From Candidatus Dormiibacterota bacterium (GTDB lineage: Bacteria; Chloroflexota; Dormibacteria; Dormibacterales; Dormibacteraceae), in assembly GCA_036794405.1 (NCBI GenBank), contig DAIRGV010000001.1, positions 44,550 through 108,549 on the forward strand: DNA of 64,000 nt. The letters are read 5' to 3'. Positions 2,358 through 53,167 of the stretch are shown piece by piece (the stretch's first letter is position 1; each line of letters begins with the position of its first letter). The notes under the pieces are model-generated. The model was not told the DNA's origin, searched no databases, and saw nothing but the letters and a program-made list of their open reading frames with translations. Made by a program: the position numbers and the translations under genes.

Positions 2358-3682
2358 CGGCAGTTCTCCACCAGCTCGTCGAGCGCCGCCGGATCGTTCA
2401 GTTCGGTGCAACAGAAGATCAGCACTCCTTCCAGTTCGGGGAACCAGCGGCCGGCGTCGAGTCCGCCCAGGATGCCCCTCTCGGCCAGCCGCGCCAGAAC
2501 CTGCTCTGGGTGCTTCGCGCGAAGCGGGAACTCGTTGGCGAAGGGCGCGCCGGGGAAGGCCGGCTCGAAGCCCGGAAGGTCCGTCAGCCGCTGGGCCAAG
2601 TAATGCGCCCGGCTCAGGCTGGTGGTAGCGATCGACCGCAGACCGTCGGGGCCCATGTAGCTGAGGTAGACGGTGGCCCCGAGGGCGCAGAGGGCGTGAT
2701 TGGTGCAGATGTTCGAGGTCGCCTTCTCGCGCCGAATGTGCTGCTCGCGCGCCTGCAGAGTCAGCACGAAACCGCGCCGGCCGCGCGCGTCGGCCGCCTG
2801 CCCGACGAGCCGGCCGGGCAGGCGTCGGACGAGCTCGTTGCGGCAGGCCATGAAGCCAACGTGCGGGCCGCCATAGCTCGGAGCGAGCCCCAGCTGCTGT
2901 CCTTCCCCGACCGCGATGTCGGCGCCGTAGTCGCCGGGAGCCGCCAGCAGCGAAAGGCTGATCGGATCGACACAGGCGATCGCGAGCGACCCGTGGGCGT
3001 GGGCCGCGGCGGTGAGAGCCTCCGGGTCTTCCACCAGGCCAAGGAAGTTCGGCTGCTGGAAGATGACCGCGGCGAGGCCATCGTGGAGCTCGGCCTCGAG
3101 ATCGTCGGCGTTCACCACACCGTCTCGCGGAGCGTGATGTAAAACGTGGAACTTTCGGCCCTTGGCAAACCCGCGGAGGGTCTCCTCGTACTCGGGATGA
3201 AGGTAACCGGCGACAAGCACCCTGTCGCGGCCCGTCTGCACCACAGCCATCATCGCCGCCTCGGCGACTGCCGTCGCGCCGTCATAGAGCGAGGCGTTGG
3301 CGGCGTCCATGGCGGTGAGCTGGGCGATCATCGTCTGGTACTCGAAAATCGCCTGCAGCCAGCCCTGGCTCGCCTCCGGCTGATATGGCGTGTAGGCGGT
3401 GTAGAACTCGCCCTTCCCGGTGACCGCCGACACGGCGGCCGGAATGAATCGGCGGTAGACACCCCCGCCACGAAAGGTCAGCCGGTCCTCGAAGACCCGG
3501 TTGCGTCCGGCGAGGGAGCGGATGCGACCGATCGCCTCTGGCTCACTCAGTCCGTCCGGCAGGTCCAGCCGCGACACCCGCAACTTGCTCGGGATATCGG
3601 CCAGGAGCGGTTCCATCGAGTCGGCCCCGATTGCAGCCAGCATCGCCGTCCGGTCCTCCGGCGAATGGACCAGGTAGGGCAT
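2354..3682 (-). CDS. gcvPA: glycine dehydrogenase (decarboxylating) subunit 1
   Basis: 442 aa with FYTAYTPYQPEASQGWLQAIFEYQTMI, typical of GcvP subunit 1. Abuts the gcvH stop. Confidence 0.9.
   Translation of the reverse strand: MPYLVHSPEDRTAMLAAIGADSMEPLLADIPSKLRVSRLDLPDGLSEPEAIGRIRSLAGRNRVFEDRLTFRGGGVYRRFIPAAVSAVTGKGEFYTAYTPYQPEASQGWLQAIFEYQTMIAQLTAMDAANASLYDGATAVAEAAMMAVVQTGRDRVLVAGYLHPEYEETLRGFAKGRKFHVLHHAPRDGVVNADDLEAELHDGLAAVIFQQPNFLGLVEDPEALTAAAHAHGSLAIACVDPISLSLLAAPGDYGADIAVGEGQQLGLAPSYGGPHVGFMACRNELVRRLPGRLVGQAADARGRRGFVLTLQAREQHIRREKATSNICTNHALCALGATVYLSYMGPDGLRSIATTSLSRAHYLAQRLTDLPGFEPAFPGAPFANEFPLRAKHPEQVLARLAERGILGGLDAGRWFPELEGVLIFCCTELNDPAALDELVENCR
3137..3153. other. parS-like AT-rich motif, site 1 (ATGTAAAACGTGGAACT)
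   Basis: Read directly. Lies inside gcvPA, where the reverse strand encodes K-F-H-V-L-H with TTC CAC GTT TTA CAT. Confidence 0.6.
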
Positions 3683-4054
3683 CTAGTGATCCGCCGCGGC
3701 GGACGCGACGTACTCGCTCTCGCTCATCAAACCCTCCGGCTCGCCGTCGACCTCGAGCCTGATCAACCAACCGCCGCCGTAGGGGTCGGAGTTCACCAGC
3801 TCCGGGTGCTGGGTCAGCAGCTCATTCACCTCGACCACGGTTCCGGCAGCGGGCGCGTAGAGATCCGAGGCCGCCTTCACCGATTCGATCACTCCGAATG
3901 AGTCGCCCCGGGCCAGCTTTGCTCCCTTCGCCGGAAGCTCGAGGAAGACCACGTCGCCGAGCTGGGCCTGGGCGAAATCAGTGATCCCAATCGTCGCCGT
4001 CCGGCCATCGAGAGCGACCCACTCATGGGTCGCCGTGTACTTCCTTTCTGCCAC
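3683..4054 (-). CDS. gcvH: glycine cleavage system protein H
   Basis: Last 123 codons of ORF 3683..4531. GTG at 4054 is preceded by AAGGAGGG. Lipoyl-lysine region [15 protein letters not shown]. Confidence 0.9.
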
Positions 4055-4070
4055 TGATCCCTCCTTGCAG

Positions 4071-5832: not shown

Positions 5833-5933
5833 CGCCGGCTAATTGTACCGGCCTCCTGAGGACCGCCCGGGATCGCCCGGCCTCGTGCGCCGCGACGCCG
5901 CATATACTCGGCGCACTGCCCAACCTTCCTTCC

Positions 5934-6974
5934 TTGATCACCTGGCAGGACGAGCTGACCGCCCTCGCGCCGGCGCCCGCCGCGGTGATCGCCAACCTCG
6001 CGGGGCGCCGGCGTTGGGCCTGGTTCTCCAACCTCACCATTGCCGGCGGGTCGATCCTCCTGGTTGGGGCCTCCGGCCTCTACAACCTGGTCCTCGCCCT
6101 GCTCGCCCACCAGCCCGCACTCCCCGCCGGGATCGTGCTCCTGGCCGCGGCCCTTGCCGCGCCGGTCCTCTGGAGAGCTCCCCGCCGGCTCCTCGCCAGA
6201 GTCCTGCCCTTCGATCCTGAAAGCGCGCCGGCTCTGCTGGCGTTGGTGGCCGTGATCCTGGTGGTGGGTGTTCAGGCGAGCTACCAGGCCGGTCATGACG
6301 CCCTCGCCGCCGTCAGTCGGTCTTCCCAGCTGCAGCCGGTCGACGTCCTCGGCCAGGAGATCCCGATCCTGATCCTGGCGCTGCTCGGCGTGGGACTCTT
6401 CACCCGCCGCGGCTTGTCGGCGTCCCTCGAACGGCTCGGGGTGGTGCGCCCGGCGGCCTGGCAGATCCTCTTTGCGCTGGCGGTCGCCGGCCTCTTCATC
6501 GCCATCAGCCAGGGGGCCGAGAGCCTCCAACGAGAAATCGACCCGGGGCTCGCCCACCGCCTGGAACAGTCGACATCGCACTATTACGGGGGCATCAACG
6601 GGCCTTACGCCATCGTCGTCATCGCCCTCGCCCCCGGGATCGCCGAGGAGCTCTTCTTCCGGGGCGCGCTCCAGCCCCGACTCGGGATCCTTGTCGCCGC
6701 GCTTGCGTTTGCGGCCGTCCATACGCAGTACGCCATCACCGTCGACACCCTGCTCGTCTTCACCCTCGGCTGCGGGCTGGGCCTGCTGCGCAAGTGGCTC
6801 AACACCTCCGCCGCAATCACGAGCCACGCCGCCTACAACGCGCTCGCCGGCCTCGGCATCCCGGGATTGCTTCTGCCCTGGGCGATCGCGGGCGAGGTCC
6901 TCCTCACGATCGCGGCGGTCGCACTCTGGTTGATCGGCCGCAAGTCTTCCCCTGAATTCTCCGAAACTCCTTAA
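5934..6974 (+). CDS. CPBP family (CAAX-type) intramembrane metalloprotease
   Basis: IAEELFFRGALQP, FAAVHTQY and SHAAYNA motifs plus multiple hydrophobic segments. Start is TTG 5934 or GTG 5985. The earlier part of ORF 5475..6974 overlaps the divergent gene. Confidence 0.75.
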   Translation: MITWQDELTALAPAPAAVIANLAGRRRWAWFSNLTIAGGSILLVGASGLYNLVLALLAHQPALPAGIVLLAAALAAPVLWRAPRRLLARVLPFDPESAPALLALVAVILVVGVQASYQAGHDALAAVSRSSQLQPVDVLGQEIPILILALLGVGLFTRRGLSASLERLGVVRPAAWQILFALAVAGLFIAISQGAESLQREIDPGLAHRLEQSTSHYYGGINGPYAIVVIALAPGIAEELFFRGALQPRLGILVAALAFAAVHTQYAITVDTLLVFTLGCGLGLLRKWLNTSAAITSHAAYNALAGLGIPGLLLPWAIAGEVLLTIAAVALWLIGRKSSPEFSETP

Positions 6975-7023: not shown

Positions 7024-7860
7024 ATGCAGGCGGCGAGTGGACTGGCACAAGATGTTCGGGATAAGCAACGACTGGAGCCCAAGATCTTGAGGCCAGCGCT
7101 GGAAACGCGAATTGTCGCGATCGTCAATCAAAAGGGCGGAGTGGGAAAGACCACCACCGCCATCAATCTCGCGGCCGCAATGGCCGAGTTGGGGCGCCAG
7201 GTCGTGCTGATCGACCTCGACCCGCAGGGGAACAGCACCAGCGGGCTGGGTTTCGACGTCCGCCGCCAGCGCCTCACCGTCTACCAATTGCTCAGCGGCG
7301 AAGCGGTGATCGACGACGTCGCGATCCCGACCGCCGTGCCCGGCCTCCATCTCGTCCCCTCCGACCTGTCCCTCGCCGGAGCCGAGATCGAGTTGGCCAC
7401 CCAGCCGGAGCGGGAGTTCCGTCTCCGCCGGGCTCTGGGCGAGCTCGGCGGGGGCTTCGGCCACGTCATCATCGACTGCCCGCCCTCGCTCGGGCTCCTG
7501 ACCCTCAATGCGCTCACCGCCGCTCACGAAGTGCTGGTGCCGATGCAATGCGAGTTCTTCGCCCTCGAGGGACTGGGCAACCTTGTGTACACGATCGCCC
7601 TCATCCGCCAGCGGCTGAACCCAGAGCTGCGCCTGAGCGGAATCCTCATGACCCAGTTCGACGCCCGAACGACGGTGGCCTGGGAAGTGATCGACCAGGT
7701 CCGTCGCGCCTACCCGGCCGAGGTCTTCGCGACACTCATCCCACGCAACGTGCGCCTCAGTGAGGCGCCCAGCCACGGCCAGCCGATAACCGCTTACGAC
7801 CCGAGCTGCAAGGGGGCGATCGCCTATCGCGAGCTCGCCAAGGAGGTACTCGCGCGATGA
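7024..7860 (+). CDS. parA: chromosome partitioning ATPase ParA/Soj
   Basis: Deviant Walker A IVNQKGGVGKTTTAINLA and DLDPQGN. ATGA overlap with parB. Confidence 0.9.
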   Translation: MQAASGLAQDVRDKQRLEPKILRPALETRIVAIVNQKGGVGKTTTAINLAAAMAELGRQVVLIDLDPQGNSTSGLGFDVRRQRLTVYQLLSGEAVIDDVAIPTAVPGLHLVPSDLSLAGAEIELATQPEREFRLRRALGELGGGFGHVIIDCPPSLGLLTLNALTAAHEVLVPMQCEFFALEGLGNLVYTIALIRQRLNPELRLSGILMTQFDARTTVAWEVIDQVRRAYPAEVFATLIPRNVRLSEAPSHGQPITAYDPSCKGAIAYRELAKEVLAR

Positions 7861-8708
7861 TGGGAACCAAGCGACATGGTCTCGGTCGAGGGCTCGAGGC
7901 GCTCATCCCGCTGCCAACCGACCGGCGGGAATCGGGCGTGCCACAGTTGATTGCCATCGACCAGATCCGGCCTTCGGACCAGCAGATGCGCCGCACCTTC
8001 GATTCGGAGGCGCTGCGGGAGCTGGCCGAATCGATCCGAAGCCACGGGTTGCTCCAACCGGTGCTGGTGCGGCGCCTCGCCGACGGCTACCAGCTATTGG
8101 CAGGAGAGAGGCGCTGGCGAGCCGCGCGGCTGGCGGGCTTGGATCGTGTACCCGCGCTTGTCCGCGAAGAGCCGGATGAGGCCGAGCGCCTCTTGCTGGG
8201 GCTGATCGAGAACCTCCAGCGCGAGAACCTGAACTCGATCGAGGAGGCGCACGGCCTGCGCATCCTGTCGGACCAGTTCCATCTGACCCAGGAAGAGATC
8301 GCGGCGCGGCTGGGGAGGAATCGAGTCTCGGTCACACAGTCCCTGCGGCTGCTCACCGCCTGCCCGGCGGTCCAGTCGGCGGTGGCGGGTGGATCGTTGA
8401 GCGCCGGACACGCCCGCGCCCTGGTTGGTCTGCCCGGTTTCCAGGACCAAGAGCACGGATTGAAGGTGGTGCTTTCTCGGCGGCTCTCGGTTCGGCAGAC
8501 GGAGGCTTGGGTGAAGCGCTACGTTCCTCCCCGGCCACGAATCCCAGCCGCCTCGTCTCACTCGGCGCTCGAGAAGCTGGCGTCTGACCTGCAGGCGGCC
8601 CTGGGCGTTGACGTCAAGCTGACCGGAAGCCTGCGACGCGGCCGGCTCGTCCTCGGATTCAACTCCAAGGAAGAGCTCCAGAGGCTTTACGACAAGCTGA
8701 CAAGCTAG
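7857..8708 (+). CDS. parB: chromosome partitioning protein ParB/Spo0J
   Basis: GERRWRAA arginine/CTP box and HTH LTQEEIAARLGRNRVSVTQSLRLL. Lies downstream of parA. Confidence 0.9.
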   Translation: MMGTKRHGLGRGLEALIPLPTDRRESGVPQLIAIDQIRPSDQQMRRTFDSEALRELAESIRSHGLLQPVLVRRLADGYQLLAGERRWRAARLAGLDRVPALVREEPDEAERLLLGLIENLQRENLNSIEEAHGLRILSDQFHLTQEEIAARLGRNRVSVTQSLRLLTACPAVQSAVAGGSLSAGHARALVGLPGFQDQEHGLKVVLSRRLSVRQTEAWVKRYVPPRPRIPAASSHSALEKLASDLQAALGVDVKLTGSLRRGRLVLGFNSKEELQRLYDKLTS

Positions 8709-8711
8709 GCT

Positions 8712-8727
8712 TGTTCCACGTTTACAT
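8712..8727. other. parS-like AT-rich motif, site 2 (TGTTCCACGTTTACAT, one T shorter than the other copies)
   Basis: Read directly. Starts 4 nt after the parB stop codon (TAG 8706-8708). Confidence 0.6.
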
Positions 8728-10931: not shown

Positions 10932-10948
10932 ATGTAAAACGTGGAACA
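10932..10948. other. parS-like AT-rich motif, site 3 (ATGTAAAACGTGGAACA)
   Basis: Read directly. Intergenic, upstream of the M16 peptidase start. Confidence 0.6.
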
Positions 10949-13727: not shown

Positions 13728-13858
13728 CTATCCACGGGCTGTGGTCAATTTGTGGATAAGTTCGCTTCCAAAGGATGAGGGCCCGTTGCCCGTCGCGAAT
13801 CGCCTCCTGGCCGGGCCAGTCGGGGCGCTGAGACTCATATCGGTCGTCGTTTTCCACA
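13728..13858. promoter_or_regulatory. DnaA-box cluster (putative oriC / dnaA-operon control region)
   Basis: Boxes found: CTATCCACG 13728-13736 (7/9), TGTGGTCAA 13740-13748 (7/9), TGTGGATAA 13751-13759 (9/9) and TTTTCCACA 13850-13858 (8/9). A relatively AT-rich stretch lies at about 13553-13612. Located between rpmH and the dnaA operon. Confidence 0.6.
13751..13759 (-). promoter_or_regulatory. perfect consensus DnaA box (TTATCCACA on the minus strand)
   Basis: TGTGGATAA read directly. Confidence 0.7.
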
Positions 13859-13882
13859 CGCGCTACAAGGAGAAGCCAGAGC

Positions 13883-14659
13883 TTGCAGGTCGGGCCACAA
13901 CCCTGCCTCTCGGCTAGGTTGGCCATATATCGGGATGGTGAGCCGGAGCCGAAGGTCGAAGAGGTGCAGGGGACCGGTCCGCAGGAACTTATGCACAGGC
14001 TTTGCACCGCCACCGCGCAGGTTATCCGCGACCAGGGCGGAAGCCTTCCCCAGCCCGCCGTGAGGGCTTTGATTGAAAACCTCGTGCACGCGCGATTCCA
14101 GAGTCCGACCGTGTCGATCCTAGATGGCGGACGGACGCTGCGAGTGGCAGACCGCGGGCCCGGCATCTCTGAAAAGCAACTGGCGCTGGAGCCCGGCTAC
14201 TCCAGCGCCGGCGACTCCGAGCGGAAAGTCATCGCCGGGGTCGGCGCCGGTCTGGCGGTGGCGGCGCGGATGGCGGCGGACGGCGGAGGACGACTGGAGA
14301 TCAACGACAACCTGGGGGGTGGAACAGTGGTGACGCTTACATTCGCAGGAACCGTTAAGGACGGCCGCTCGGCGCGGTCGGAGCCGCTTCTCACCGGGCT
14401 CGGCCAACTTCTTCAACCGCCCCCGCCCGACGGGCCTTCGGAGCTGAGCGACAACGGCAAACGAATCCTTCTTCTTCTCGCCGAGCTCGGTGGAAGCGGA
14501 CTCGTCACGATCTGCGATGAGCTCCGGATCTCGCCTGCGGCCGCGCGCTCAGAACTGGACTCTCTCCGACGGCTGGGCCTCCTCGACCCCGCCGACCTCG
14601 AGCAGATCATCCTCAGCCCGGCTGGCCTCGGCTACCTCGATGGCATCTTCGCCGAATGA
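13883..14659 (+). CDS. GHKL (HATPase_c-like) ATP-binding domain fused to a C-terminal winged-helix domain; function unknown
   Basis: N-box-like ALIENLVHA, G1 VADRGPGIS, G2 GVGAGLAVAARM, then GGRLEINDNLGGGTVVTLTF. C-terminal KRILLLLAELGGSGLVTICDELRISPAAARSELDSLRRLGLL looks like a MarR/ArsR-type wHTH. No HisKA domain. The start could be TTG 13883, TTG 13919 or ATG 13991. The stop overlaps the dnaA ATG (ATGA). Confidence 0.65.
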   Translation: MQVGPQPCLSARLAIYRDGEPEPKVEEVQGTGPQELMHRLCTATAQVIRDQGGSLPQPAVRALIENLVHARFQSPTVSILDGGRTLRVADRGPGISEKQLALEPGYSSAGDSERKVIAGVGAGLAVAARMAADGGGRLEINDNLGGGTVVTLTFAGTVKDGRSARSEPLLTGLGQLLQPPPPDGPSELSDNGKRILLLLAELGGSGLVTICDELRISPAAARSELDSLRRLGLLDPADLEQIILSPAGLGYLDGIFAE

Positions 14660-16035
14660 GCGGTGGTATGAACCAGGAGCAGATCTGGACCGCGGTCCAG
14701 GAGGAGCTGCGCTACCAGCTTGCCAAGCCCAGCTATGAGACCTGGGTGAAGAACACCTCCCTCCAATCGCTGGAAGGGAACACCTTCCGGATCGCAGTCC
14801 CCAGCAAGCTCGCCAAGGACTGGCTCGAGGATCGGTTCGCAAGCCTGATCCAGGAAACGTTGCAGGCGGTGACCGGGACCGAGGCTGAGGTCGATTTCGT
14901 CGTCGCCGCGTCGACCTCCCGCCGCCAGTCCCGCCAGGAGGATGACGAGGAGGACCAGCGGCGGCTCAACCTGGAGGAGGAGCAGGAGGAGCTCGGCACC
15001 GTCGCCAACGCGGAGCTGAACGAGAAGTTCAAGTTCAGCGCGTTCGTGGTCGGCAACAACTCGCGCTTCGCCCACGCCGCCGCAATGGCGGTGTCAGACT
15101 CGCCGGGACAGGCCTACAACCCGCTCTTCCTCTATGGCGGCGTTGGGCTCGGAAAGACCCATCTGATGCACGCGATCGGCCACGAGGTGCGCCGACGCTT
15201 CCCCAAGAAGCGGGTGGCCTACCTCACCTCCGAGCAGTTCATGAACGAGGTGATCGCCTCCATTCAGACGGCGCAGATGAGTGAGTTCCGTCACAAGTAC
15301 CGGACCGTCGACGTGCTCCTGATCGACGACGTCCAATTCCTCGCCGGCAAAGACCGGACCAAGGAGGAGTTCTTCCACACCTTCAATGCCCTTCACGAGA
15401 TCAACAAGCAGATCGTCATCTCGTCCGACCGGCCACCGAAGGAGATCCCGACCCTTGAGGATCGACTCCGCTCGCGCTTCGAGTGGGGCCTGATCGCCGA
15501 CATCCAGCCGCCCGACTTCGAGACCCGGCTCGCCATTTTGAAGTCGAAGCTGGGGACCGCGGGCGGCTACGTGTCGGAGGACGTGCTGACCTTCATCGCC
15601 CACAAGGTGCAAAAGAACATCCGGGAGCTGGAAGGAGCTCTGACTCGGGTCATCGCCTTCGCCTCGATCCACCAGCGGGAAATGGACACCGAGTCGGCGG
15701 CGGTCCTGCTCAGCGACATCATCCCCGCGGCCTCTCGGCGGCCGATCTCGATCGACGCGATCAAGCAGGCGGTGTCGGACCACTACGGGATCCCGCTCGA
15801 GGAGCTGACCGGGAAGCGCCGAGACAAGCACATCGTCTTCCCCCGCCAGGTGGCGATGTACATCGTTCGAGAGGAGACGCCCTCATCGCTGCCGGTGATC
15901 GGTCAGGCCTTCGGTGGACGGGACCACACGACGGCGCTCCACTCGATCGAGAAGATCGCCAACGAGTTGAAGGAGGACGAGCGGTTGCGCTACGAGATCC
16001 AGACCATCCGAGAACGGCTCTACGCAGCGCGATGA
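14656..16035 (+). CDS. dnaA: chromosomal replication initiator protein DnaA
   Basis: YNPLFLYGGVGLGKTHLMHAIGH (Walker A), LLIDDVQFLAGK, and C-terminal DNA-binding domain VFPRQVAMYIVREET...GGRDHTTALHS. Confidence 0.95.
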   Translation: MSGGMNQEQIWTAVQEELRYQLAKPSYETWVKNTSLQSLEGNTFRIAVPSKLAKDWLEDRFASLIQETLQAVTGTEAEVDFVVAASTSRRQSRQEDDEEDQRRLNLEEEQEELGTVANAELNEKFKFSAFVVGNNSRFAHAAAMAVSDSPGQAYNPLFLYGGVGLGKTHLMHAIGHEVRRRFPKKRVAYLTSEQFMNEVIASIQTAQMSEFRHKYRTVDVLLIDDVQFLAGKDRTKEEFFHTFNALHEINKQIVISSDRPPKEIPTLEDRLRSRFEWGLIADIQPPDFETRLAILKSKLGTAGGYVSEDVLTFIAHKVQKNIRELEGALTRVIAFASIHQREMDTESAAVLLSDIIPAASRRPISIDAIKQAVSDHYGIPLEELTGKRRDKHIVFPRQVAMYIVREETPSSLPVIGQAFGGRDHTTALHSIEKIANELKEDERLRYEIQTIRERLYAAR

Positions 16036-18813: not shown

Positions 18814-21702
18814 ATGACCTTGAATCGCGAGCAGCGGCAGGCGGTGGCGGAGCTTCGGGGTCCGGTCCGGGTCGTCGCCGGTGCGGGAACCGGCAAGACC
18901 GCCGTTGTCGCCGAACGTTTCCGCCGTCTGGTCGCGGCGGGCGCCCCGCCGGATTCGATCTTGGTCATGACCTTCACCGAGCGGGCTGCCGCCGAGATGC
19001 GGGCAAGGATCGAGGCGGGTCTCGGCACCTACCTCGGCGAGATCTGGGTCGGCACCTTCCATTCGGTCGCGCAGGCGTTGCTGCGCGAGGACGGATGGAG
19101 GGTGGGCGTTCCACCCAGCTTCAGGGTGCTGGCGGGCGCCGACCGGTGGATCCTGATGCGAGAGCTTCTCTGGGAACTGGGCGACGCGGCCCTGGTCGGG
19201 GCAGAGCGACCGGACGATCTCGTAAACCCGCTCCTGCGACTGCTGGAACGGCTGAAGCAGGAGCTGATTCCAGCCAACCGGCTGGAAGATTGGGCTCGCG
19301 GCTGCGAGGACCGGGTCCTCGGGGAGCAAATGCTGGCCGCAGTCCGGCTGTTCCGCGCTTATGGTCGGCGCTGCGACGCCGAGCGGATGCTCGACTTCGA
19401 CGACCTGATCCTTCGCCTGGTACGGCTGCTCGAAGGCCGCGCCGAGGCGAGGGAGAGGAATGTAAAACGTTTTACATCCGTCCTGGTCGACGAGTATCAG
19501 GACTCCAACCTCGCGCAGGAGCGGATGGTTGAACTGCTCTCCGGGAGCGGCAACGTCTGCGTCGTGGGCGATGACGACCAGAGCATCTATCGTTTCCGTG
19601 GAGCATCTTTGGCCAGCATGGAGAGGTTCGTCCGGTCCTTTCCTGCGGCCACGACCCGCTCTCTCGGACGCAACCGCCGGAGCACCGGGAACGTCGTCGC
19701 CGGCGCGGCAGCCTTGATCGAGAATAACCCGAATCGGCTCCCCAAGATCCTTACCTCATTCCGCGGCTCCGGCCCGCGGATTGCAATCGCACACGCGGCC
19801 ACCGGACTCGACGAGTCGCTACAGATCGCTCAACGGGTCGGCAAGCTCGTCGAGACCGGCGTGGCTCTTCGCCGGATCGCGCTCCTGGTCCGAACCAACG
19901 CCCTTGCTCGCCCCATCGTTCTCGCGTTGCGTGCCGCCGGCATCCCACACCAGCTCTGGGGAGCGCGGGGCTTCTACCGGCGGCCCGAGATCCTCGACGT
20001 CATCGCGTATCTGCGGCTGCTCGCCGATTCGTCCGACGAGCTCGCCATCAGCCGCCTGGCCGCGCGCCCGGCGGCCGCTCTGGATCCGCTGGAAGTGCTT
20101 TCGAGGCTGTCGGCGGCTCGCGCAGCCGGCCAGCCGCCGCTGGTGGCCCTCGAAGGCTGGCCGCCCGCAGGGGCCTGGGTCGCCACGATCCGCCGCTTGA
20201 CCGGCCTCGCCAGCCGGCTCGGCATCGACGAGCTGTTCTTCGAGTTGATGGCATCGACCGCCTACCTCGAGGTCACGACATTCGAGAGCGAGCTCGAACA
20301 GCGGCAGGTCGCCGCCAACCTTGCCAAGTTCAGTGAAGTGATCGACGGCTTCCGGGAGCGAAGCCGATACCAATCGCTCGGCGCCTTCCTCGGCTACCTC
20401 GAGCTGGTCCTTCTTTCTGAGGCCGAGGAGGAGGTGGCACAGGTCGAGGAGGTGGAGGCCGCCGTCCAGGTCATGACCATCCACCAGGCCAAGGGCCTCG
20501 AGTTCGACGCCGTGTTCGTCCCGGCCGTGGTCGAAGGCAGGCTGCCCCAGCCACACCGCGGCGACCGCTTCCGGATCCCGGTCCAGCTGGCCGGGGAGAC
20601 GGCCGGTCGCGAAGACCAGATCGCAGAGGAGCGCCGCCTCCTCTATGTCGCGATGACGCGGGCTCGCGACAGGCTCCAACTGAGCTGGGCTGACAGCTAC
20701 GAGGGCGCCCGGGCATGGCGTCGCTCCCGCTTTCTGGACGAGGTGGAGGCGGCCGGGGCCCGCCACTTCCGCCAGGTCCTGGTCCCACCCCTCGGGGGAG
20801 GCATGGGAGCGGTGGTCGCGAGCCGGGAAGGCACGGGCCTCGACTCCGATTCCCGGCCGGGCCCAGGTCGCCGCCGTCGCCCTCGGTCAACCGCGTCCGG
20901 GCCCGCGGCGAGACTCTCCTTCAGTGGGATCAGCACCTATCGTGAGTGCCCTCGTCAATACCAGTACCGCTACGTCCATCAGCTGCCCGTGGCCGCCACC
21001 GCCGAGGCGCAGTACGGGACCATCCTGCACGCGGCGCTCATGCGCCTGGGGCGACTGCGGATGGCCGAACCGGAGGTTACGTCTGACGCGCTTGATCGTC
21101 TCTACGACGAGGTCTGGGAAGAGCTGCCCTTCCCCGATCCCCGTCGCCTTCCCGCCCTCCGCGCACTCGGGAGGCGGCAGTTGGAACGCTATCGGCTGGC
21201 GGGCGGCTTCCTGGCCCGTCCGGCAATGGTCGAGCAGTCGTTTACCGCGGAGCTTGACGGCTGGAAGCTCCGTGGGATCATCGACCGGGTAGACCCACCC
21301 CCCACCCTTGAGGGTGGGGACCAGGCTTCCCGCCACGGAAAGCGGGCCTCCGCTACGGCCCCGCCTGGAGTCGAGCAGCCGCAGTTGGGCCGCTGGCGGA
21401 TCATCGACTACAAGACCGGAGATCCGATGCCCGCCAGCCGGCTTCGCCGCGACCTGCAGCTGGCGCTTTATGCGCTCGGGGCTCGGCGCGCTCTAGGGCT
21501 CGGCGAACTGGAGTTGGAGATCGTCTACCTGAAGGACGCGAGCCGAATCCTGCTCCCGGCCGGCGACAAGCTGCTGGCCGAAGCCGAGAGCGTCGGTCGG
21601 GAGGTTGCCGAGGCGGTCGACGCCGGCCGGTTTGAGCCGCGCCCAGAGCGGAGGCGCTGCTCGCTCTGCCCTTACCGGCTGGCCTGCCCCGCCGCCCTGT
21701 AG
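18814..21702 (+). CDS. UvrD/PcrA-type helicase fused to a PD-(D/E)XK (RecB/Cas4-like, Fe-S) nuclease
   Basis: AGAGTGKT Walker A, VLVDEYQDSN, VMTIHQAKGLEFD, YVAMTRAR. C-terminal GIIDRVD...IIDYKTG and Cys pattern YRECPRQ...CSLCPYRLAC. Confidence 0.85.
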   Translation: MTLNREQRQAVAELRGPVRVVAGAGTGKTAVVAERFRRLVAAGAPPDSILVMTFTERAAAEMRARIEAGLGTYLGEIWVGTFHSVAQALLREDGWRVGVPPSFRVLAGADRWILMRELLWELGDAALVGAERPDDLVNPLLRLLERLKQELIPANRLEDWARGCEDRVLGEQMLAAVRLFRAYGRRCDAERMLDFDDLILRLVRLLEGRAEARERNVKRFTSVLVDEYQDSNLAQERMVELLSGSGNVCVVGDDDQSIYRFRGASLASMERFVRSFPAATTRSLGRNRRSTGNVVAGAAALIENNPNRLPKILTSFRGSGPRIAIAHAATGLDESLQIAQRVGKLVETGVALRRIALLVRTNALARPIVLALRAAGIPHQLWGARGFYRRPEILDVIAYLRLLADSSDELAISRLAARPAAALDPLEVLSRLSAARAAGQPPLVALEGWPPAGAWVATIRRLTGLASRLGIDELFFELMASTAYLEVTTFESELEQRQVAANLAKFSEVIDGFRERSRYQSLGAFLGYLELVLLSEAEEEVAQVEEVEAAVQVMTIHQAKGLEFDAVFVPAVVEGRLPQPHRGDRFRIPVQLAGETAGREDQIAEERRLLYVAMTRARDRLQLSWADSYEGARAWRRSRFLDEVEAAGARHFRQVLVPPLGGGMGAVVASREGTGLDSDSRPGPGRRRRPRSTASGPAARLSFSGISTYRECPRQYQYRYVHQLPVAATAEAQYGTILHAALMRLGRLRMAEPEVTSDALDRLYDEVWEELPFPDPRRLPALRALGRRQLERYRLAGGFLARPAMVEQSFTAELDGWKLRGIIDRVDPPPTLEGGDQASRHGKRASATAPPGVEQPQLGRWRIIDYKTGDPMPASRLRRDLQLALYALGARRALGLGELELEIVYLKDASRILLPAGDKLLAEAESVGREVAEAVDAGRFEPRPERRRCSLCPYRLACPAAL
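19460..19477. other. parS-like AT-rich motif, site 4 (perfect 18-bp palindrome ATGTAAAACGTTTTACAT)
   Basis: Read directly. Inside the helicase gene, encoding N-V-K-R-F-T as AAT GTA AAA CGT TTT ACA. Confidence 0.6.
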
Positions 21703-24337: not shown

Positions 24338-24357
24338 CCCTCGACCGGCCCGGCCCA

Positions 24358-24375
24358 ATGTAAAACGTTTTACAT
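24358..24375. other. parS-like AT-rich motif, site 5 (perfect 18-bp palindrome ATGTAAAACGTTTTACAT)
   Basis: Read directly. Lies in the spacer between two convergent stop codons (24337 and 24404). Confidence 0.6.
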
Positions 24376-30102: not shown

Positions 30103-30125
30103 TGTCCCGTCTCAGAGATTCGTGT
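30102..30125 (+). repeat. IS630 left terminal inverted repeat
   Basis: GTGTCCCGTCTCAGAGATTCGTGT. Confidence 0.9.
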
Positions 30126-30170
30126 CATAATTAAGGAGTTCCAGCTAACTATGATGCGAGGGCTCTTCCT

Positions 30171-31259
30171 ATGCGTACTGGCCGCCCCAAAGCAGCGCTC
30201 GTGGTGACCGATGATGAACGTGCAGTCCTGACGCGTTGGACGGCGCGGCGCAAGACGGGACAGGGTCTGGCTCTGCGAGCTCGAATCGTTTTGGGCTGCG
30301 CTCAGGGAAGCTCCAATACTGAGGTCGCCAAGGCTGTGAAGGTCGCCAACGCGACTGTCGGCAAGTGGCGGCGTCGCTTCGTCGAAAAGCGCTTGGCAGG
30401 GCTTCTGGACGAGCCCCGGGTGGGGGCTCCGCGCCAGATCGGGGATGACCAGATTGAAGAGGTGGTGGTGAAGACTTTGGAGTCGACTCCGCGCGGGGCC
30501 ACCCACTGGAGCACCCGCTCGATGGCGGCCGACAGCGGACTCAGCCGGCCCACGATCAATCGGATCTGGCGAGCCTTCGGACTGCAGCCGCATCGGACCG
30601 ACACGTTCAAGCTCTCCAACGACCCCCAGCTGGTCGAGAAGGTGCGTGACATCTTCGGCTTGTATCTCAATCCGCCCGATCGAGCGCTTGTGCTCTGCGT
30701 CGATGAGAAAGCTCAAATCCAAGCCTTGGACCGGACTCAGCCGATCCTGCCGATGCGGCCCGGACTCCCCGAGACTCGCACCCATGACTACAGTCGCCAC
30801 GGCACCACCACCTTGTTCGCTGCCCTCGATATTGCCACTGGCGGGGTCACCGGCGAGCTTCATAGGCGCCACCGCTCGACCGAGTTCAAGAGCTTCCTAG
30901 ACACCGTCGACGAGGCCGTCCCGGGCGACCTTGAGGTGCATCTCATCATGGACAACTACGGCACTCATAAGACGCCGCTGATCCACAAGTGGATGCTTCG
31001 CCATCCTCGCTTCCACTTTCACTTCACCCCCACCTACTCGTCCTGGATCAATCAGGTCGAGCGCTGGTTCGCCGACCTGACTATGAAGCAGTTGCGGCGT
31101 GGTACTCATCGCAGCACCCTCGCCTTGGAGGCAGCGATCAAACAGCACCTGCTCATCTACAACGAGAACCCCAAGCCCTTCGTCTGGGTCAAAAGCGCCG
31201 ACGAGATCCTAACCAGCATCATGCGATTTTGCACACGAATCTCTGAGACGGGACACTAG
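30171..31259 (+). CDS. IS630-family DDE transposase
   Basis: N-terminal HTH ([20 protein letters not shown]). DDE_3 core LCVDEK...IMDNYGTHK...[11 protein letters not shown]. The ORF reads through the right IR, and its TAG stop is built from the duplicated TA. Confidence 0.9.
31233..31256 (-). repeat. IS630 right terminal inverted repeat
   Basis: ACACGAATCTCTGAGACGGGACAC, the exact reverse complement of the left repeat. Confidence 0.9.
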
Positions 31260-32651: not shown

Positions 32652-33821
32652 TCAGGACGAAGTCGACTCGCCTGTGGAGCGTTTTACGGGGGAGTGCTCG
32701 ACCAGTTGGTCGTAGAGCCCGGCGAGCGCTTCCAGATTGCGCTCCAGCGAATACCGTTCGACCACCCGTTGCCGTGCGAGCCGTCCCAGTTCGACCGATA
32801 GGAAGGGGAGCTCGATCAGCTCGCGAAAAGCCATCCCGAGCTCTATCGCCAGGTGGCGCGGGTCGACCACGACGCCCGCGCCGCGGAGCGCCTCGCCGTC
32901 CGTTCCGACATCGGTGGCGACGGTCGCGACACCGCAGGCCATCGCCTCCAGCATGGAGAGGGAGAGTCCCTCGACGGTCGAGGGCAGGAAGAAGCCATCG
33001 GCGGCGCGGAGGATCGACACTCGCTCCTCCTGCTCAGCGATGTGGCCCGTGAAGATGACTCGCGGGTCGCGGTAAAACCGCTCCAGACGTCGCTTCTCGG
33101 TTCCGGTGCCCATGATCAGCAGCTTGCAGCGGCTGGGCGGCGCGCAGTCGAGGAATGCCTCGAGCAGCACGTCGACGTTCTTTTCCGAGTCGACCCTCCC
33201 CATGTAGACGAAGAGCCGGTCGGCACCGAAGCGTTGTCGTCGGTCGGAGGGGCCGGGGCAGTAGCGCTCCACATCGACTCCGTTGGGCAGGATCCGGATG
33301 ATCGGCTCCGGCACGCCGAGGTTGACCAGGATGTCGCGCTGCGCAGGGCCGAAGACGATCACGCGGTCGCATTTCGCCAGCGTTGGAGCGTAGAGCCGGT
33401 AGGTCCCGCTGGTGATTCCGCCCCAGAGGCTGAGCCGGTTGTCGAAGGCGACGTGGAAGGTGGCGACCAGGGGAATGCCAACTTCGCGGCTCAGCTTGGG
33501 CAGATCGAAGTCCATGCTCGAAAACCAGAAGGAGGCATGGATGACGTCGAACTCTCGCTGGCGCAGACGGTCGACCAGCTTCCGCTTGGCCCGGCCGGGC
33601 GAGAGCACCAGCGGCTTGACGAGGGGGACGTTGACCGATGCCAGCGAGACCGACTCGCTGCTCTCCTCTGGCCCTTCGCCGCTGGGGTCGGCGTTGTGGA
33701 AGAAGGTCACCTGGTGGCCCATCCGGCGGAGCCCACCGACGATCTCGTGCGAGTAGGTCGCCATTCCACCGCCGAGGCTGGCCGACTGGTGGCCCAGCCA
33801 CGCGATCCGGAGCCGCCTCAT
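32652..33821 (-). CDS. GT4-family glycosyltransferase
   Basis: RIAWLGHQSASLGGGMATYSHEI, and EGLSLSMLEAMACGVATVATDVG (E-x7-E). Confidence 0.75.
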   Translation of the reverse strand: MRRLRIAWLGHQSASLGGGMATYSHEIVGGLRRMGHQVTFFHNADPSGEGPEESSESVSLASVNVPLVKPLVLSPGRAKRKLVDRLRQREFDVIHASFWFSSMDFDLPKLSREVGIPLVATFHVAFDNRLSLWGGITSGTYRLYAPTLAKCDRVIVFGPAQRDILVNLGVPEPIIRILPNGVDVERYCPGPSDRRQRFGADRLFVYMGRVDSEKNVDVLLEAFLDCAPPSRCKLLIMGTGTEKRRLERFYRDPRVIFTGHIAEQEERVSILRAADGFFLPSTVEGLSLSMLEAMACGVATVATDVGTDGEALRGAGVVVDPRHLAIELGMAFRELIELPFLSVELGRLARQRVVERYSLERNLEALAGLYDQLVEHSPVKRSTGESTSS

Positions 33822-45002: not shown

Positions 45003-45141
45003 TCGCGGTCCCGGCTCGGGACGCGAAGGTCAGGCCGAGGAGGATCGCCAAAGCCAGCACGCCGACCAGGAGCCCGGGGAAGCCCCGCCGCCGGCGGCCA
45101 TAGAAGAAGAGCCAGAGTCGGCCCGGCCGGCGGCGGCTCAC
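44896..45141 (-). CDS. small hydrophobic protein (two predicted TM helices)
   Basis: GTG 45141 overlaps the HAD stop (GTGA). GLLVGVLALAILLGL and WIGIGFLVLIALLALAALAVALAA. Overlaps the 3' tail of larB, so tentative. Confidence 0.35.
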   Translation of the reverse strand: MSRRRPGRLWLFFYGRRRRGFPGLLVGVLALAILLGLTFASRAGTAISYWIGIGFLVLIALLALAALAVALAASLRPPGGR

Positions 45142-45833
45142 AGCAGCGATTCCAGCCCGGCCAGGGTCGCGATGGAGGCGACTCCCGCCGCCGGCGGTGG
45201 ACCGAACGGTGGGCAGACGATAGCGGCGCGCATGCCCACCGCCAGCGGCCCCTCGTAGTCCTCGCGGACCCGGTCGCCGATGAAGAGAACCCGCTCGGCG
45301 GGGATGCCGAGTGCCGCCAGCGCCGCCCGGTAGGGCTCGGGGCTCGGCTTGCGCCGTCCGACCGCGGACGAGAAGACGATCGCGTCCATCCGCTCGGCGA
45401 GGCCTGTCGCGCGGAGCTGGCGCTGCATCATCTCGGGTGGAAAGGGCGCGTTCGAGCAGATACCGGTGAGCAGGCCCCGGGCGCGGAGACGGTCGATGAC
45501 GTCCAGGGCTCCCGGCACAAGTCGCACGGAGCGATCCCAGGCCCGCTGCTCGAGGTCCAGAATCCGGTACAGCACGTCGTCGGAGAGGGTCAGGCCCGCC
45601 CGGCGCCAAGCGCGGCGGTAGAAGTCCAGGTAGTCGATCTCGTCCTCCGAACCGAACCCGTCCAGGTCCTGCTCCAGCGGATGTAAAACGTGGAACAACA
45701 GCCATTCCGCGGTTGGCGGCTCGGGGCCGAGCCAGGGCCGAACGGTCTCCAGCACCTCGACCAGGGCGGTGGTGGGGTACTCGAAAGTGACGAGTGTCAG
45801 CCCGTAGTCGAAGAGAACGGCCTCTGTCCGCAT
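45138..45833 (-). CDS. HAD-superfamily hydrolase
   Basis: ATG 45833. [10 protein letters not shown] (motif I, DxG), ICSNAP (motif II), [10 protein letters not shown] (motif III Lys), [11 protein letters not shown] (motif IV). Confidence 0.8.
45681..45697. other. parS-like AT-rich motif, site 6 (ATGTAAAACGTGGAACA)
   Basis: Read directly. Inside the HAD gene, encoding F-H-V-L-H as TTC CAC GTT TTA CAT. Confidence 0.6.
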
Positions 45834-45852
45834 CTGTGGTACACACAGTGTC

Positions 45853-46335
45853 GTGTCCTCGCGCCTGACCCACGTCGACGAGTCGGGTGCCGCCCGGATG
45901 GTCGATGTCGGCGCCAAGGCCGAGACGCGCCGCGAGGCCAAGGCCGAGTGCCTGGTCCGGATGGCTCCGGCAACACTGGAGGCGGTCCGGCAGTCGGACG
46001 TCGCGAAGGGTGACGCGCTCGGGGTCGCCCGCGTCGCCGGGATCATGGCTGCCAAGCGCACCTCGGAGCTGATCCCGCTTTGCCACCCCCTTCCGATCAC
46101 CAGCGTGGAGCTCGAGTTCGAGCTGCTCCCCGCCGGCGTCCGGATCCTCGCCACCGCCCGGGTCACCGGGCGCACGGGCGTCGAGATGGAGGCGCTCACC
46201 GCGGTCGCCGTGGCGGGGCTCACGGTGATCGACATGGTCAAGGGAATGGAGCCGGGCGTGTGGCTGGAGTCGGTTCGACTGCTCGAGAAGACCGGCGGCA
46301 AGAGCGGGGGCTGGAAACGGCAACCGCCTGGGTAG
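45853..46335 (+). CDS. moaC: cyclic pyranopterin monophosphate synthase
   Basis: [32 protein letters not shown]. Confidence 0.9.
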
Positions 46336-46784
46336 TGACGGTCAGCGACCGCTGCTCCGCCGGTGAGGCTGAGGACCGCAGCGGGCCCGCGGTGGCCCGC
46401 CGGCTCCAGGAGGCGGGCATGGACGTGATCGGAAGCCAGATCGTGCCCGACGAGGTCGACAAGATCCGCGCCGCCCTCCGCGAAGCCGTCGGCGATCTCG
46501 TCGTCACCACCGGCGGCACCGGCCTCGCGCCGCGCGACGTGACGCCACAGGCCACCGCCCTCGAGCTCGACTACCAGGTGCCCGGGCTGTCCGAGACGAT
46601 GAGGCGGGCGGGCGCCGCCTCGACGCCGATGGCGATCCTGTCGCGAGGAATTGCCGGTGTCCGCGGCCGCTGCCTGGTGCTGAACCTTCCCGGCAGCGAG
46701 CGAGGGGCCACCGAGTCCCTGGACGCCGTGCTGCCCGCGCTTGGCCACGCCCTCGAACAGCTGGCGGGCCGGACCGGGCATTGA
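46335..46784 (+). CDS. mog: molybdopterin adenylyltransferase (MogA/MoaB family)
   Basis: TVSDRCSAGEAEDRSGP, VVTTGGTGLAPRDVTP, LNLPGS. GTG 46335 overlaps the moaC stop. Confidence 0.75.
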   Translation: MTVSDRCSAGEAEDRSGPAVARRLQEAGMDVIGSQIVPDEVDKIRAALREAVGDLVVTTGGTGLAPRDVTPQATALELDYQVPGLSETMRRAGAASTPMAILSRGIAGVRGRCLVLNLPGSERGATESLDAVLPALGHALEQLAGRTGH

Positions 46785-48976: not shown

Positions 48977-48982
48977 CTGCGG

Positions 48983-50240: not shown

Positions 50241-50254
50241 TACGCTGCCGAGCG

Positions 50255-51100: not shown

Positions 51101-52322
51101 CCTCGCCGACCACGTAGAGGCTGCCGCAGACGAGGACCAGGCCCCCGGGGCCCGCGAGCTCGACGCCGCGCTCCGCGGCGGCCGCCGCCGGCAGGACGAC
51201 CTCGCCGGCGCCCCAGGCGGCGGCCAGGTCCTCGGGCCGTGCAGCACGGGGGCTCTGGGCGGCCGTAAAGACGACTCCGGCCGGCCGGAGGTGGCGGAGC
51301 TCGGCCAGGCCGGCGGCGACGTCCTTGTCGGCCATCATCCCGAACACCACGGTCACCGGCCGGCCGCCCGCCAGCCGCGGTACGTCCTCCGCCAGCCGCG
51401 CCAGCGCGGCGGGGTTGTGGCCGCCGTCGAGAAGCACCGGCGGGTTGTCACCGACCAATTCCAGGCGTCCCGGCCAGCGCGCCTCTGCCAGACCGTCGGG
51501 CGCTTCGCCGAGGAAATGGGCAGCCGCGACGGCCAGCCCAGCGTTGGTCGCCTGGTGGCTCCCGAGAAGTGGCACGGGGAGGCCGCGATGGGCGAAGCCC
51601 GGACCGGAGACGTCGATCTCCGACCCGTCCCAACCCGCCCAGCGCGCCTCCAACCGGAGCTCGTGGCCCAGTCGCCAGAGCGGCGCGCCGGCGCTCGCCG
51701 CCGCCTTTTCGACGACTGTCAGCGCCTCGTCCTCGGCCCCGGTGATGACCGTGTTGCCGGGCTTGATAATCCCGGCTTTCTCGGCCGCAATCCGGGCGAC
51801 GGTGTCGCCCAGGTATTGCTGGTGGTCGAGCGTGACGTTGGTGATCACCGCCAGGCCGAGGTCGAGCACGTTGGTCGCGTCGAGCCTGCCTCCCATGCCG
51901 ACCTCGATGACGAGCCGGTCGCAGCGCTGAGCGAGGTGGTTGATCGCCACCGCGGTCAGGATCTCGAACTCGGTCGGCGGACCGAGTTCAGCCGCGATCC
52001 CCTCCAGGCGGGGCCGCAGGAGCTCCACCGCGGTGGCGAAGTCATCCTCAGCGATGGGGGTGCCGTCGACCTGGATCCGCTCCGTGTAGGAGCTGAGGTG
52101 GGGGCTCGGCATGGTGCCCACGGTGTGGCCCGCGTGACGCAGAATCGCGGCCAGCATCGCGGCAGTCGAGCCCTTGCCGTTGGTCCCCGCGATGAGGGCT
52201 CCGCGCATGCCCTGCTGGGGATTGCCGACCGCCTCCAGGATGGCGCGAGTCCGATCGAGGCCGAGCTTGATGCCGAACCGGCCGAGCCCGGTGATGTACT
52301 CGACCGACTCGGCGTAGGTCAG
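51069..52322 (-). CDS. folC: dihydrofolate synthase / folylpolyglutamate synthase (apparent CTG start)
   Basis: IAGTNGKGST P-loop and ITNVTLDHQQYLG. The conserved N-terminal YAESVEYITGLGRFGIKLGLDRTRAILEAVGNP lies upstream of the first ATG (52208). The only in-frame initiator after the upstream stop is CTG 52322, which overlaps the folD stop as CTGA. Confidence 0.8.
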   Translation of the reverse strand: MTYAESVEYITGLGRFGIKLGLDRTRAILEAVGNPQQGMRGALIAGTNGKGSTAAMLAAILRHAGHTVGTMPSPHLSSYTERIQVDGTPIAEDDFATAVELLRPRLEGIAAELGPPTEFEILTAVAINHLAQRCDRLVIEVGMGGRLDATNVLDLGLAVITNVTLDHQQYLGDTVARIAAEKAGIIKPGNTVITGAEDEALTVVEKAAASAGAPLWRLGHELRLEARWAGWDGSEIDVSGPGFAHRGLPVPLLGSHQATNAGLAVAAAHFLGEAPDGLAEARWPGRLELVGDNPPVLLDGGHNPAALARLAEDVPRLAGGRPVTVVFGMMADKDVAAGLAELRHLRPAGVVFTAAQSPRAARPEDLAAAWGAGEVVLPAAAAAERGVELAGPGGLVLVCGSLYVVGEVRPALVGERR

Positions 52323-53167
52323 CGCCGCCTTCGGACCTCCGCGTCATAGGTGTTGCTGACGAGCATCGCGCGCGTCATCGGGCCGACGCCGCCCGGGTTG
52401 GGGGTGAGCCAGCCGGCCACCTCGGCCACGCCCTCCGCGACATCGCCGACCACGTTGCCGTTCAGCCGGCTCACCCCGACATCGATCACCGCCGCGCCCG
52501 GCTTGACCCAGTCCGCTTCGATGTAAAACGTTTTACCGACCGCTGTCACGAGCACGTCCGCCTGCCGGCAGACCGCGGCGAGGTCGGTGGTCCGGCTGTG
52601 GCAGATCGTGACCGTCGCGTGCTCCTGGAGAAGGAGCAGTGCGACAGGCTTTCCGACCAGGTTGCTACGGCCCACGACGACAGCCCTCCGGCCCGCCACC
52701 GGCACCTCATACCGAGCCAGTAGCTCCATGATGCCGGCCGGGGTGCAGGGTTTGACCAGTGGCTCGCCGAGTGCCAGGCGGCCGGCGTTGTAAGGGTGGA
52801 GCCCGTCAACGTCCTTGACCGGCGAGATCGCCTCCACCACCGCTTCAGAATCGACGTGCGCGGGCATCGGCATCTGGGGCAGGATCGCGCTGACCTCGTC
52901 ACTGGCGTCCAGCGCTGCAACCAGCGCGATCACCTCCTCGGTGGTGGCGCTTGCGGGGAGCCGGTGGTCAGAGGTGGTGATGCCGACCCGCTCGCAGTTC
53001 CGGTGCTTCATCCGGATGTAGATGTCCGACGCCGGGTCGTCGCCGACCAGCACTGTTGCCAGGTGCGGCCGGGTCCCGCCGGTCGCGACCCGGTCGCGGA
53101 CTCGAGCCTCGATCTCGACGTAGATCGACTCCGCGATCGCCCGTCCGTCCAGGCTCAGCGCGCTCAT
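52319..53167 (-). CDS. folD: bifunctional methylenetetrahydrofolate dehydrogenase / methenyltetrahydrofolate cyclohydrolase
   Basis: LATVLVGDDPASDIYIRMK, DVDGLHPYN, VVVGRSNLVGKP, PNPGGVGPMT. Confidence 0.9.
   Translation of the reverse strand: MSALSLDGRAIAESIYVEIEARVRDRVATGGTRPHLATVLVGDDPASDIYIRMKHRNCERVGITTSDHRLPASATTEEVIALVAALDASDEVSAILPQMPMPAHVDSEAVVEAISPVKDVDGLHPYNAGRLALGEPLVKPCTPAGIMELLARYEVPVAGRRAVVVGRSNLVGKPVALLLLQEHATVTICHSRTTDLAAVCRQADVLVTAVGKTFYIEADWVKPGAAVIDVGVSRLNGNVVGDVAEGVAEVAGWLTPNPGGVGPMTRAMLVSNTYDAEVRRRR
52521..52537. other. parS-like AT-rich motif, site 7 (ATGTAAAACGTTTTACC)
   Basis: Read directly. Inside folD, encoding G-K-T-F-Y-I as GGT AAA ACG TTT TAC ATC. Confidence 0.55.

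Follow-up and report, generated by a model that had tools for sequence, protein, structure and literature searches.

Chromosomal parS is among the most conserved cis-elements of bacteria, and annotation, origin-domain mapping and ParB biology rely on its consensus, TGTTNCACGTGAAACA. In this study, we focused on a 64-kb stretch of a Candidatus Dormibacterota genome (the window, by which the whole stretch of DNA analysed is meant) that comprises the oriC/dnaA/parAB region and has a GC content of 68.5%. A short palindrome recurs around the origin in this window, and a first-pass annotation had proposed that its copies form a non-canonical, origin-proximal parS array. Our results make it likely that these palindromes are the chromosomal parS of Dormibacterota, that is, the predicted loading sites of ParB. 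This reading is carried by the synteny with the window of nearly all phylum matches listed in a genome scan, by the conserved slots in which the sites lie, by signs of selection on the DNA itself and by a change in ParB. Most likely, one or both halves of canonical parS have been replaced by a new spelling. We propose that one half-site, termed A, is derived and clade-specific and that the other, termed B, is the ancestral canonical half. What is new would be a lineage-specific, partly hybrid centromere of a primary chromosome, accompanied by a change in ParB at a contact residue that is normally invariant. This phylum, abundant in soils that are cold and dry, has no cultured representative, and throughout it such sites are invisible to a consensus search.

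Palindromic sites around the origin

The word ATGTAAAACGT matched eight times over both strands of the window and never in 100 dinucleotide-preserving shuffles, in agreement with the earlier claim that its recurrence is not due to chance. These eight matches represent six full sites; the seventh copy lacks one nucleotide. The frame TGTNNNACGTNNNACA gave four exact and two one-mismatch matches in the window, where none was expected. Two half-site types flank a central CG, as had been described: half-site A is TGTAAAAC and half-site B is TGTTCCAC. Sites take the form AA, AB or, rarely, BB, and the full sites of the window are of the AB and AA forms.

The full sites at 3137, 10932 and 45681 read ATGTAAAACGTGGAAC[T/A]. 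The first is an AB site whose last base is off (ATGTAAAACGTGGAACT, 3137-3153) and lies inside gcvPA (2354-3682, minus strand). The AB site ATGTAAAACGTGGAACA is found at 10932-10948, in the intergenic region between the start of an M16 peptidase gene and an 89-aa gene, and again at 45681-45697, inside the gene of a 547-aa HAD-domain protein (45138-46781, minus strand). The AA site ATGTAAAACGTTTTACAT, a perfect 18-bp palindrome, is present both inside a UvrD/PcrA-Cas4 helicase gene (site 19460-19477, gene 18814-21702) and between convergent genes (24358-24375). Another AA site, with one mismatch (ATGTAAAACGTTTTACC, 52521-52537), lies inside folD (52319-53167, minus strand). The BA site TGTTCCACGTTTACAT, from which one T is deleted, occupies 8712-8727, its first base being the fourth past the end of the parB stop codon. 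All seven copies stand where the first-pass annotation had placed them and with the sequences it gave, four of them inside unrelated genes. To these we add an eighth, decayed copy, TGTGGAGCGTTTTACG at 32673-32688, in the slot that holds a perfect AA site in L168 (codes of L plus a number denote homologous loci of relatives or metagenomes). The relic, set against the intact site of L168, points to turnover of sites within the array.

The site at 8712-8727 is probably weakened in this species by its 1-nt deletion. In L001 and L002, two independent metagenome assemblies that encode an identical ParB, a substitution-only search gave no match at the slot after parB. The deletion therefore appears to be common to independent assemblies and not an assembly error.

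The sites occur about once per 9 kb, from -11.5 to +38 kb relative to dnaA. In front of A halves there is often a (G)A, by which several sites become 20-22-bp palindromes (CGATGTAAAACGTTTTACATCG), a count that is partly biased by the scan pattern used. The orientation of AB sites relative to oriC, judged by inspection in the window and in relatives, has no consistent polarity.

These sites have much in common with the parS of chromosomal ParABS systems: a 16-bp dyad in the TGT...AC frame around a central CG, several copies close to the origin, a mixture of intragenic and intergenic positions, one copy adjoining parB, an adjacent parAB operon, and a B half and rare BB sites that match the canonical form exactly. 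In other phyla, too, it is familiar for a parS to lie beside parB or within it. Seven sites over such a span are typical for chromosomal parS arrays (Table 1, PMC7022226). Differences from these systems are that the dominant half here is TGTAAAAC, that most sites are asymmetric AB hybrids, that the A half is often extended outward by (G)A and that the cognate ParB has Gln for Asn178. Membership in parS is thus favored by the inverted repeat in the TGT...ACGT...ACA frame, the proximity of the origin, the linked parAB and DNA-level selection, and fails on the consensus TGTTNCACGTGAAACA for the dominant half-site.

No canonical parS, even with up to 3 mismatches, is present within the 64-kb window. 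By direct comparison AA sites agree with the consensus at 10 of 16 positions and AB hybrids at 12 of 16, as had been stated earlier; a fit to it is seen only for half B and for the rare BB sites of relatives. Half A differs from canonical parS, for example TGTTTCACGTGAAACA, at the three central positions, where TTC or TCC is replaced by AAA. The parS of Pseudomonas, TGTTCCACGTGGAACA, fits TGTTNCAC, and that of Myxococcus is the same with a final G for A (PMC7022226). In spelling, the B half equals this canonical Pseudomonas/Myxococcus half (PMC7022226) and is undrifted. The first-pass view that the site has drifted from the parS consensus thus applies to the A half and not to the B half. The 16-mers of the sites were not found in the literature searched, in which matches to TGTAAAACG were M13 primers, and nothing on parS in Dormibacterota was found there.

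Private ParB centromere sequences are also known from replicon-specific parS, as on Vibrio chromosome 2, in Burkholderia and in the segS and cis elements of Deinococcus (PMC7671480). However, those belong to secondary replicons or plasmids, go with divergent ParB subfamilies and are often direct-repeat arrays (PMC7671480), whereas the parAB genes described here are linked to dnaA on the primary chromosome and encode an orthodox ParB that is about 45-50% identical to canonical ones.

A regulatory role of the palindrome was also considered. LacI/GalR-family repressors have palindromic operators of 14-18 bp in which A/T runs stand on both sides of a central CG, the AA form TGTAAAACGTTTTACA is like LacI-family cre or PurR boxes, and three of the seven copies are intergenic. 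It is nevertheless very unlikely that the palindrome is a transcription-factor operator of a regulon, such as that of a LacI/GalR-family repressor. The other four copies are conserved at positions well within housekeeping genes that are unrelated to one another, the B half misfits LacI-type operators, and no LacI-family gene adjoins any site among the called genes. Moreover, the phylum matches listed in the scan described below are confined to the origin region and are not found at the promoters of a functional gene set.

Distribution and conservation in Dormibacterota

One genome per species (185,579 species) was scanned with the pattern GATGTAAAACGTKKWAC, which covers all six full sites of the window. 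At least 118 stretches matched. Among the matches listed, 28 were of Dormibacterota type, 25 of them labelled Dormibacterota or 'Chloroflexi bacterium CF_xx' and 3 labelled otherwise, and 26 of these 28 stretches are syntenic with the window. Of the other two, L102 is on the contig of L149, at 33 kb from parB, and L122 is in uvrA. The other 90 matches listed were singletons, mostly from AT-rich genomes with a median locus GC near 0.40, as expected by chance. Which matches are listed should not depend on chromosomal position. In genomes of few Mb, evenly spread sites would place about 2% of their number within such a window.

This distribution bears on the remaining possibilities raised at the outset. 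A short word found seven times in 64 kb and unlike the rest of the genome in composition might be a genome-wide signal or repeat: a DNA uptake sequence, an element like repetitive extragenic palindromes (REP) or miniature inverted-repeat transposable elements (MITE), a site like the Noc-binding site (NBS), or a restriction/methylation target. We give this explanation even less credence than a repressor operator, because 26 of the 28 Dormibacterota matches listed fall within about 2% of the genome, in the part syntenic with the window, and because the copies have no similarity beyond a 16-22-bp core. The uptake signal, the nucleoid-occlusion-type site and the other global DNA-binding protein that the first-pass annotation had named as alternatives all fail on distribution. 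It had also named an even spread around the chromosome, or membership in a larger repeat, as observations that would count against an array; the matches listed show no even spread, and the copies in the window belong to no larger repeat. A longer repeat or mobile element was rejected by a repeat search in which no copy extended past the core, and a DNA uptake sequence or dispersed repeat was rejected on the origin restriction of the matches listed.

Contigs from three metagenome-assembled genomes (MAGs) labelled Actinomycetes, Eisenbacteria and Vicinamibacterales (L071, L090 and L114) show synteny with the origin region of Dormibacterota, and each has an AB site. These contigs are probably mislabelled or misbinned. 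The motif may thus serve as a marker of the origin region in fragmented Dormibacterota MAGs and expose misbinned contigs, as in these three cases. A scan of viral contigs with ATGTAAAACGTKKWACA gave 57 stretches with one site each, two of which were palindromic and matched both strands; these were treated as chance matches.

In 313 kb of Dormibacterota origin DNA, TGTNNNACGTNNNACA matched 43 times with at most one mismatch, and in 41 of these matches the central triplets were AAA/TTT or TCC/GGA and no others. A set independent of the motif was assembled from 80 metagenome loci (759 kb), picked by ParB homology alone with an alignment of eight Dormibacterota ParBs as the query (ParB identity 54-88%). 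It contained 50 AB and 3 BB sites, and the sole other exact match to TGTNNNACGTNNNACA was a near-canonical site in L253. Beyond the BB forms at the same slots and this near-canonical site, no canonical parS was present in these origin loci. Half-site TGTAAAAC occurred 48 times against 4.2 expected, 46 times in a full dyad, and TGTTCCAC occurred 56 times against 15.3 expected, 49 times paired. The A and B halves are almost always paired, as predicted for a dimeric binder. The ParB of P. aeruginosa can recognise one canonical half-site on its own (GTTCCAC or GTTTCAC; PMC5961200, PMC7022226), and the AB hybrids contain exactly GTTCCAC. The Pseudomonas half-sites, however, are hundreds of isolated heptamers genome-wide, whereas B is here almost always paired with A (49/56 in the set chosen by ParB).

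The first-pass annotation had suggested a search of relatives for the word near parAB. Where about ±9-10 kb around parB was available, at least one A/B site was present in 17 of 19 loci. The largest lineage (ParB identity 58-63%) has a single AB site about 4.2 kb upstream of parB, in an intergenic region beside a sigma-like gene. About 0.8-1 kb from the AB site of this major lineage, a further word, TG[CG]GA[CG]ACGTCGAACA, fits the TGT...ACGT...ACA frame with one mismatch (L206:1276, L215:23, L224:4610, L227:1761, L242:2519, L245:3979 and L263:1649). It is probably a conserved coding segment.

When the sites of relatives are projected on the window, they fall into slots at about 3138, 5850-5950 (empty here), 8710, 10930, 19470, 23700-24360, 32673, 45682 and 52537. 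Many lineages have a site 3-30 nt past the end of parB. This slot is occupied by BA in the window lineage, L184-L187, L139, L071, L112, L225, L235, L247, L256 and L261, by BB, the textbook parS, in L250, and by AA in L116, L148 and L149, where the site overlaps the TAA stop codon. Because BB, AB/BA and AA replace one another at this slot, the simplest explanation is that one protein would read both A and B halves.

Orthologous slots were then compared between genomes by ungapped identity. The gcvPA slot is kept in L061, L139, L160 and L187, with a motif identity of 94-100% against 59-80% in the flanks. Motif identity is 100% at the slot in the HAD-domain gene (orthologous in L076 and L088; flanks 62-78%), at the helicase slot (orthologous in L109; flanks 78%) and at the folD slot (orthologous in L144; flanks 77%). 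The intergenic slot upstream of the M16 peptidase gene is kept in 8 other loci, whose flanks are only 31-40% identical; the motif there is 100% identical, or 81% where A replaces B. At the 24358 slot, the AA sites of L099 and L179 project about 0.65 kb off, inside the adjacent gene.

In the four intragenic copies the motif falls into three different reading frames, as the first-pass annotation had noted. The copies at 10932 and 24358 are intergenic, the former being upstream of the M16 peptidase gene as called in L001. Its remark on unusual A/T-ending codons is also borne out. In the ten genes counted, GC content at third codon positions is 0.84, and only 2 of the 516 Leu codons are TTA, both of them within the motif. 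Other rare codons used in the motif copies are GTA (11/349), AAA (10/110) and TTT (15/135). With motif identity above that of the flanks, and with three frames in which rare codons are used, sequence comparison makes it evident that the DNA word is under purifying selection, independent of the coding frame.

ParB as the predicted binder

The parA gene (7024-7860, plus strand) encodes a Walker-type partition ATPase, and parB (7857-8708, plus strand) encodes a protein with ParB_N, HTH_ParB and ParB_C domains and the nucleotide-binding motifs GERRWRA and ENLQR. This ParB aligns end to end with the solved structures from Myxococcus, Thermus, Bacillus, Caulobacter and Helicobacter; both motifs align with structures 7BNK, 1VZ0 and 6SDK. 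It scores 154 bits against TIGR00180 (cut-off 58). The recognition helix is GRNRVSVTQSLRLL (codons at 8313-8354, plus strand), where the canonical helix is GKxRSxVxNxLRLL. A phylum-wide form, G[KR]xR[VI][SAT][VI]xQ[SA][LM]R[LI]L, is present in all examined members but one; the exception, L062, has N at the variable position before Gln and keeps the Gln.

Residues are given in the presumed numbering of Caulobacter ParB. The register was set by Q162...G170 and is consistent with the residues named in PMC7383237. In this numbering R173, R181, G201 and R204 are kept, N178 is replaced by Gln (Gln161 here, codon at 8337-8339) and S174 by Val. The parS-contacting residues Q162, G170, K171, S172, N178 and R204 are conserved in about 1,800 ParB and 400 Noc proteins (PMC7383237), so that an otherwise orthodox ParB is altered at one of these DNA contacts. 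Gln occupies position 178 in every Dormibacterota ParB with a readable recognition helix (more than 85 loci). Those ParB homologues that have a source name are labelled Candidatus Dormibacteraeota, the phylum in NCBI taxonomy, or Dormibacteraceae. For outgroups, the 150 best 50%-cluster representatives out of 1.84 billion proteins were aligned with MAFFT. Asn178 was present in 145 of these best 150 and Gln in 5, which are the nearest five (58-64% identity). Val174 is not clade-specific (24/150). On this alignment, Gln178 is restricted to the clade with A halves.

The sister lineage P0123 (L266 and L267), with a ParB 51% identical, keeps Asn178. Its genes are arranged as around parAB here (sigma-like, NfeD, Band_7, Rce1-like, parA, parB, signal peptidase, M16 peptidase), and no A/B or canonical site was found in the 5.5-7.5 kb of sequence covered. 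P0272 (L264 and L265; GC 0.44), which like P0123 is among the nearest Asn178 relatives, gave no such site in the sequence covered either.

In the mechanism that we propose, a dimer of adjacent ParB would recognise the 16-bp dyad. ParB, which has the GERRWRA/ENLQR motifs of the cytidine triphosphate-dependent clamp, a helix-turn-helix (HTH) and a C-terminal dimerisation domain, would load there as a sliding clamp and spread. The partition complexes would be moved by ParA, and SMC would probably be recruited. The change from Asn178 to Gln may allow or accompany acceptance of the A half, with the B half still readable. We infer ParB as the binder from sequence and the downstream steps from homology with characterised ParABS systems. 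Gln178 looks permissive or bispecific and not like a strict specificity switch, since the helix is constant across the BB, AB and AA lineages. Whether Gln178 is causally involved in the new specificity seems to us evenly balanced. A further proposal is that the Gln178 ParB is bispecific and that BB, AB and AA at one slot represent successive functional steps of co-evolution on a primary chromosome, with hybrids as viable intermediates; this is tentative, and we hold it a little less likely than its opposite. If true, a specificity change would be in progress here, as a natural counterpart to laboratory ParB-to-Noc trajectories. The system would offer a natural test case for a change of specificity, without loss of function, in a DNA-binding homodimer and the multiple sites that it reads. 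With BB, AB and AA at orthologous positions, each step is accessible with synthetic proteins and oligonucleotides, free of culture.

A natural switch of specificity already known in the ParB family is that of Noc and its NBS (PMC7383237). There too, substitutions in or near the recognition helix of the HTH go with a 16-bp palindrome that has few half-site differences from parS, and permissive or promiscuous intermediates are likewise in question. However, NBS, ATTTCCCGGGAAAT, is altered at positions 1 and 6 in the numbering of that paper. Noc is a paralogue beside ParB with sites spread over the chromosome, whereas here the sole parAB-encoded ParB and its origin-restricted sites have changed. 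The specificity residues of Noc are Q173, K179, K184 and R201, whereas R173 and G201 are kept here and N178 is changed. A Noc/NBS system was rejected as a candidate: the protein has R173, S179, T184 and G201 and not the residues of Noc (PMC7383237), its score against the Noc model (198 bits) is below the cut-off of 315, the word differs from NBS, and the matches listed are confined to the origin region and not scattered over the chromosome outside the terminus as NBS are.

The only serious rival is another origin-domain DNA-binding protein, either an analogue of RacA with its ram sites in B. subtilis or a second ParB/Noc-like paralogue. Such a protein would organise or anchor the origin region, and the likeness of the B half to parS would be inherited or coincidental. 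This would suit the lack of covariation between the ParB helix and the BB, AB and AA forms inside the phylum and the departure of the A half from canonical parS at all three central positions. The genes surveyed were those of the origin region, whereas such a paralogue would be encoded elsewhere in the genome. We nevertheless consider this explanation improbable, though clearly less so than an operator or a genome-wide signal. The swap of BB, AB and AA takes place at the most conserved slot, directly after the parB stop; the A and B halves occur almost only paired together; a residue of ParB that contacts DNA is changed in this clade only; and no further conserved DNA-binding gene tracks the sites across slots.

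Several points weigh against the assignment of the palindromes to parS. The origin restriction rests on the matches listed and not on an end-to-end complete Dormibacterota chromosome. L062 and L063, whose ParB has Gln178 (61% identity), have no A/B site within ±10 kb of parB. L253, from another Gln178 lineage, carries only the near-canonical TGTCGCACGTGCAACA and no A/B site in 19 kb. The ParB helix is the same in BB, AB and AA lineages, so that protein and site do not covary at a fine scale. AB hybrids dominate and only two spellings are used, which one would not expect of a symmetric homodimer whose specificity had simply become relaxed. Finally, the source organism is uncultured, and binding of ParB at the sites is a prediction.

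Other palindromic words were noted in these loci. The near-canonical dyad TGTCGCACGTGCAACA of L253 (12855-12870), at 2 kb from parB on the downstream side, is composed of the halves TGTCGCAC and TGTTGCAC. In L062 (5996-6011), and also in L063, a gene boundary is marked by the perfect 16-bp palindrome TCGCTCAATTGAGCGA.

Gene order and other features of the window

Genes were identified by NCBIfam and Pfam scans and from the gene calls on identical public contigs. The domain scans agree with the earlier identification of ParA, ParB, DnaA, DnaN, GcvPA, FolD, the UvrD/PcrA-type helicase and the HAD-domain protein. The gene order in the window is gyrB, gcvPB, gcvPA, gcvH, gcvT, a weak sigma-like gene, a CPBP protease gene, parA and parB. 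These are followed by the genes for signal peptidase and M16 peptidase, then jag, yidC, yidD, rnpA and a DnaA-box cluster. A HATPase_c gene, dnaA, dnaN, recF and the UvrD/PcrA-type helicase gene with a Cas4-like nuclease end come next.

The DnaA-box cluster lies upstream of dnaA at 13751-13997, contains one perfect TTATCCACA and two one-mismatch boxes, and is presumed to be oriC. The dnaA gene is located at 14656-16035 on the plus strand. Between the DnaA boxes and dnaA, a 258-aa gene (13883-14659) has a HATPase_c domain only, and its end overlaps the dnaA start. It is also present in L061 and L062 and absent from the L064 lineage. The helicase that hosts an AA site (18814-21702) is a 962-aa UvrD/PcrA-type, AddA-like protein with a C-terminal Cas4/PD-(D/E)XK nuclease domain. 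In relatives, a DciA-family gene precedes this AddA-like helicase downstream of recF.

Rfam and tRNA scans of the window gave no matches. An IS630-like insertion sequence is located at 30099-31259. It contains a 362-aa open reading frame with DDE_3 and HTH_32/29/23 domains and is bounded by perfect 27-nt terminal inverted repeats at 30099-30125 and 31233-31259.

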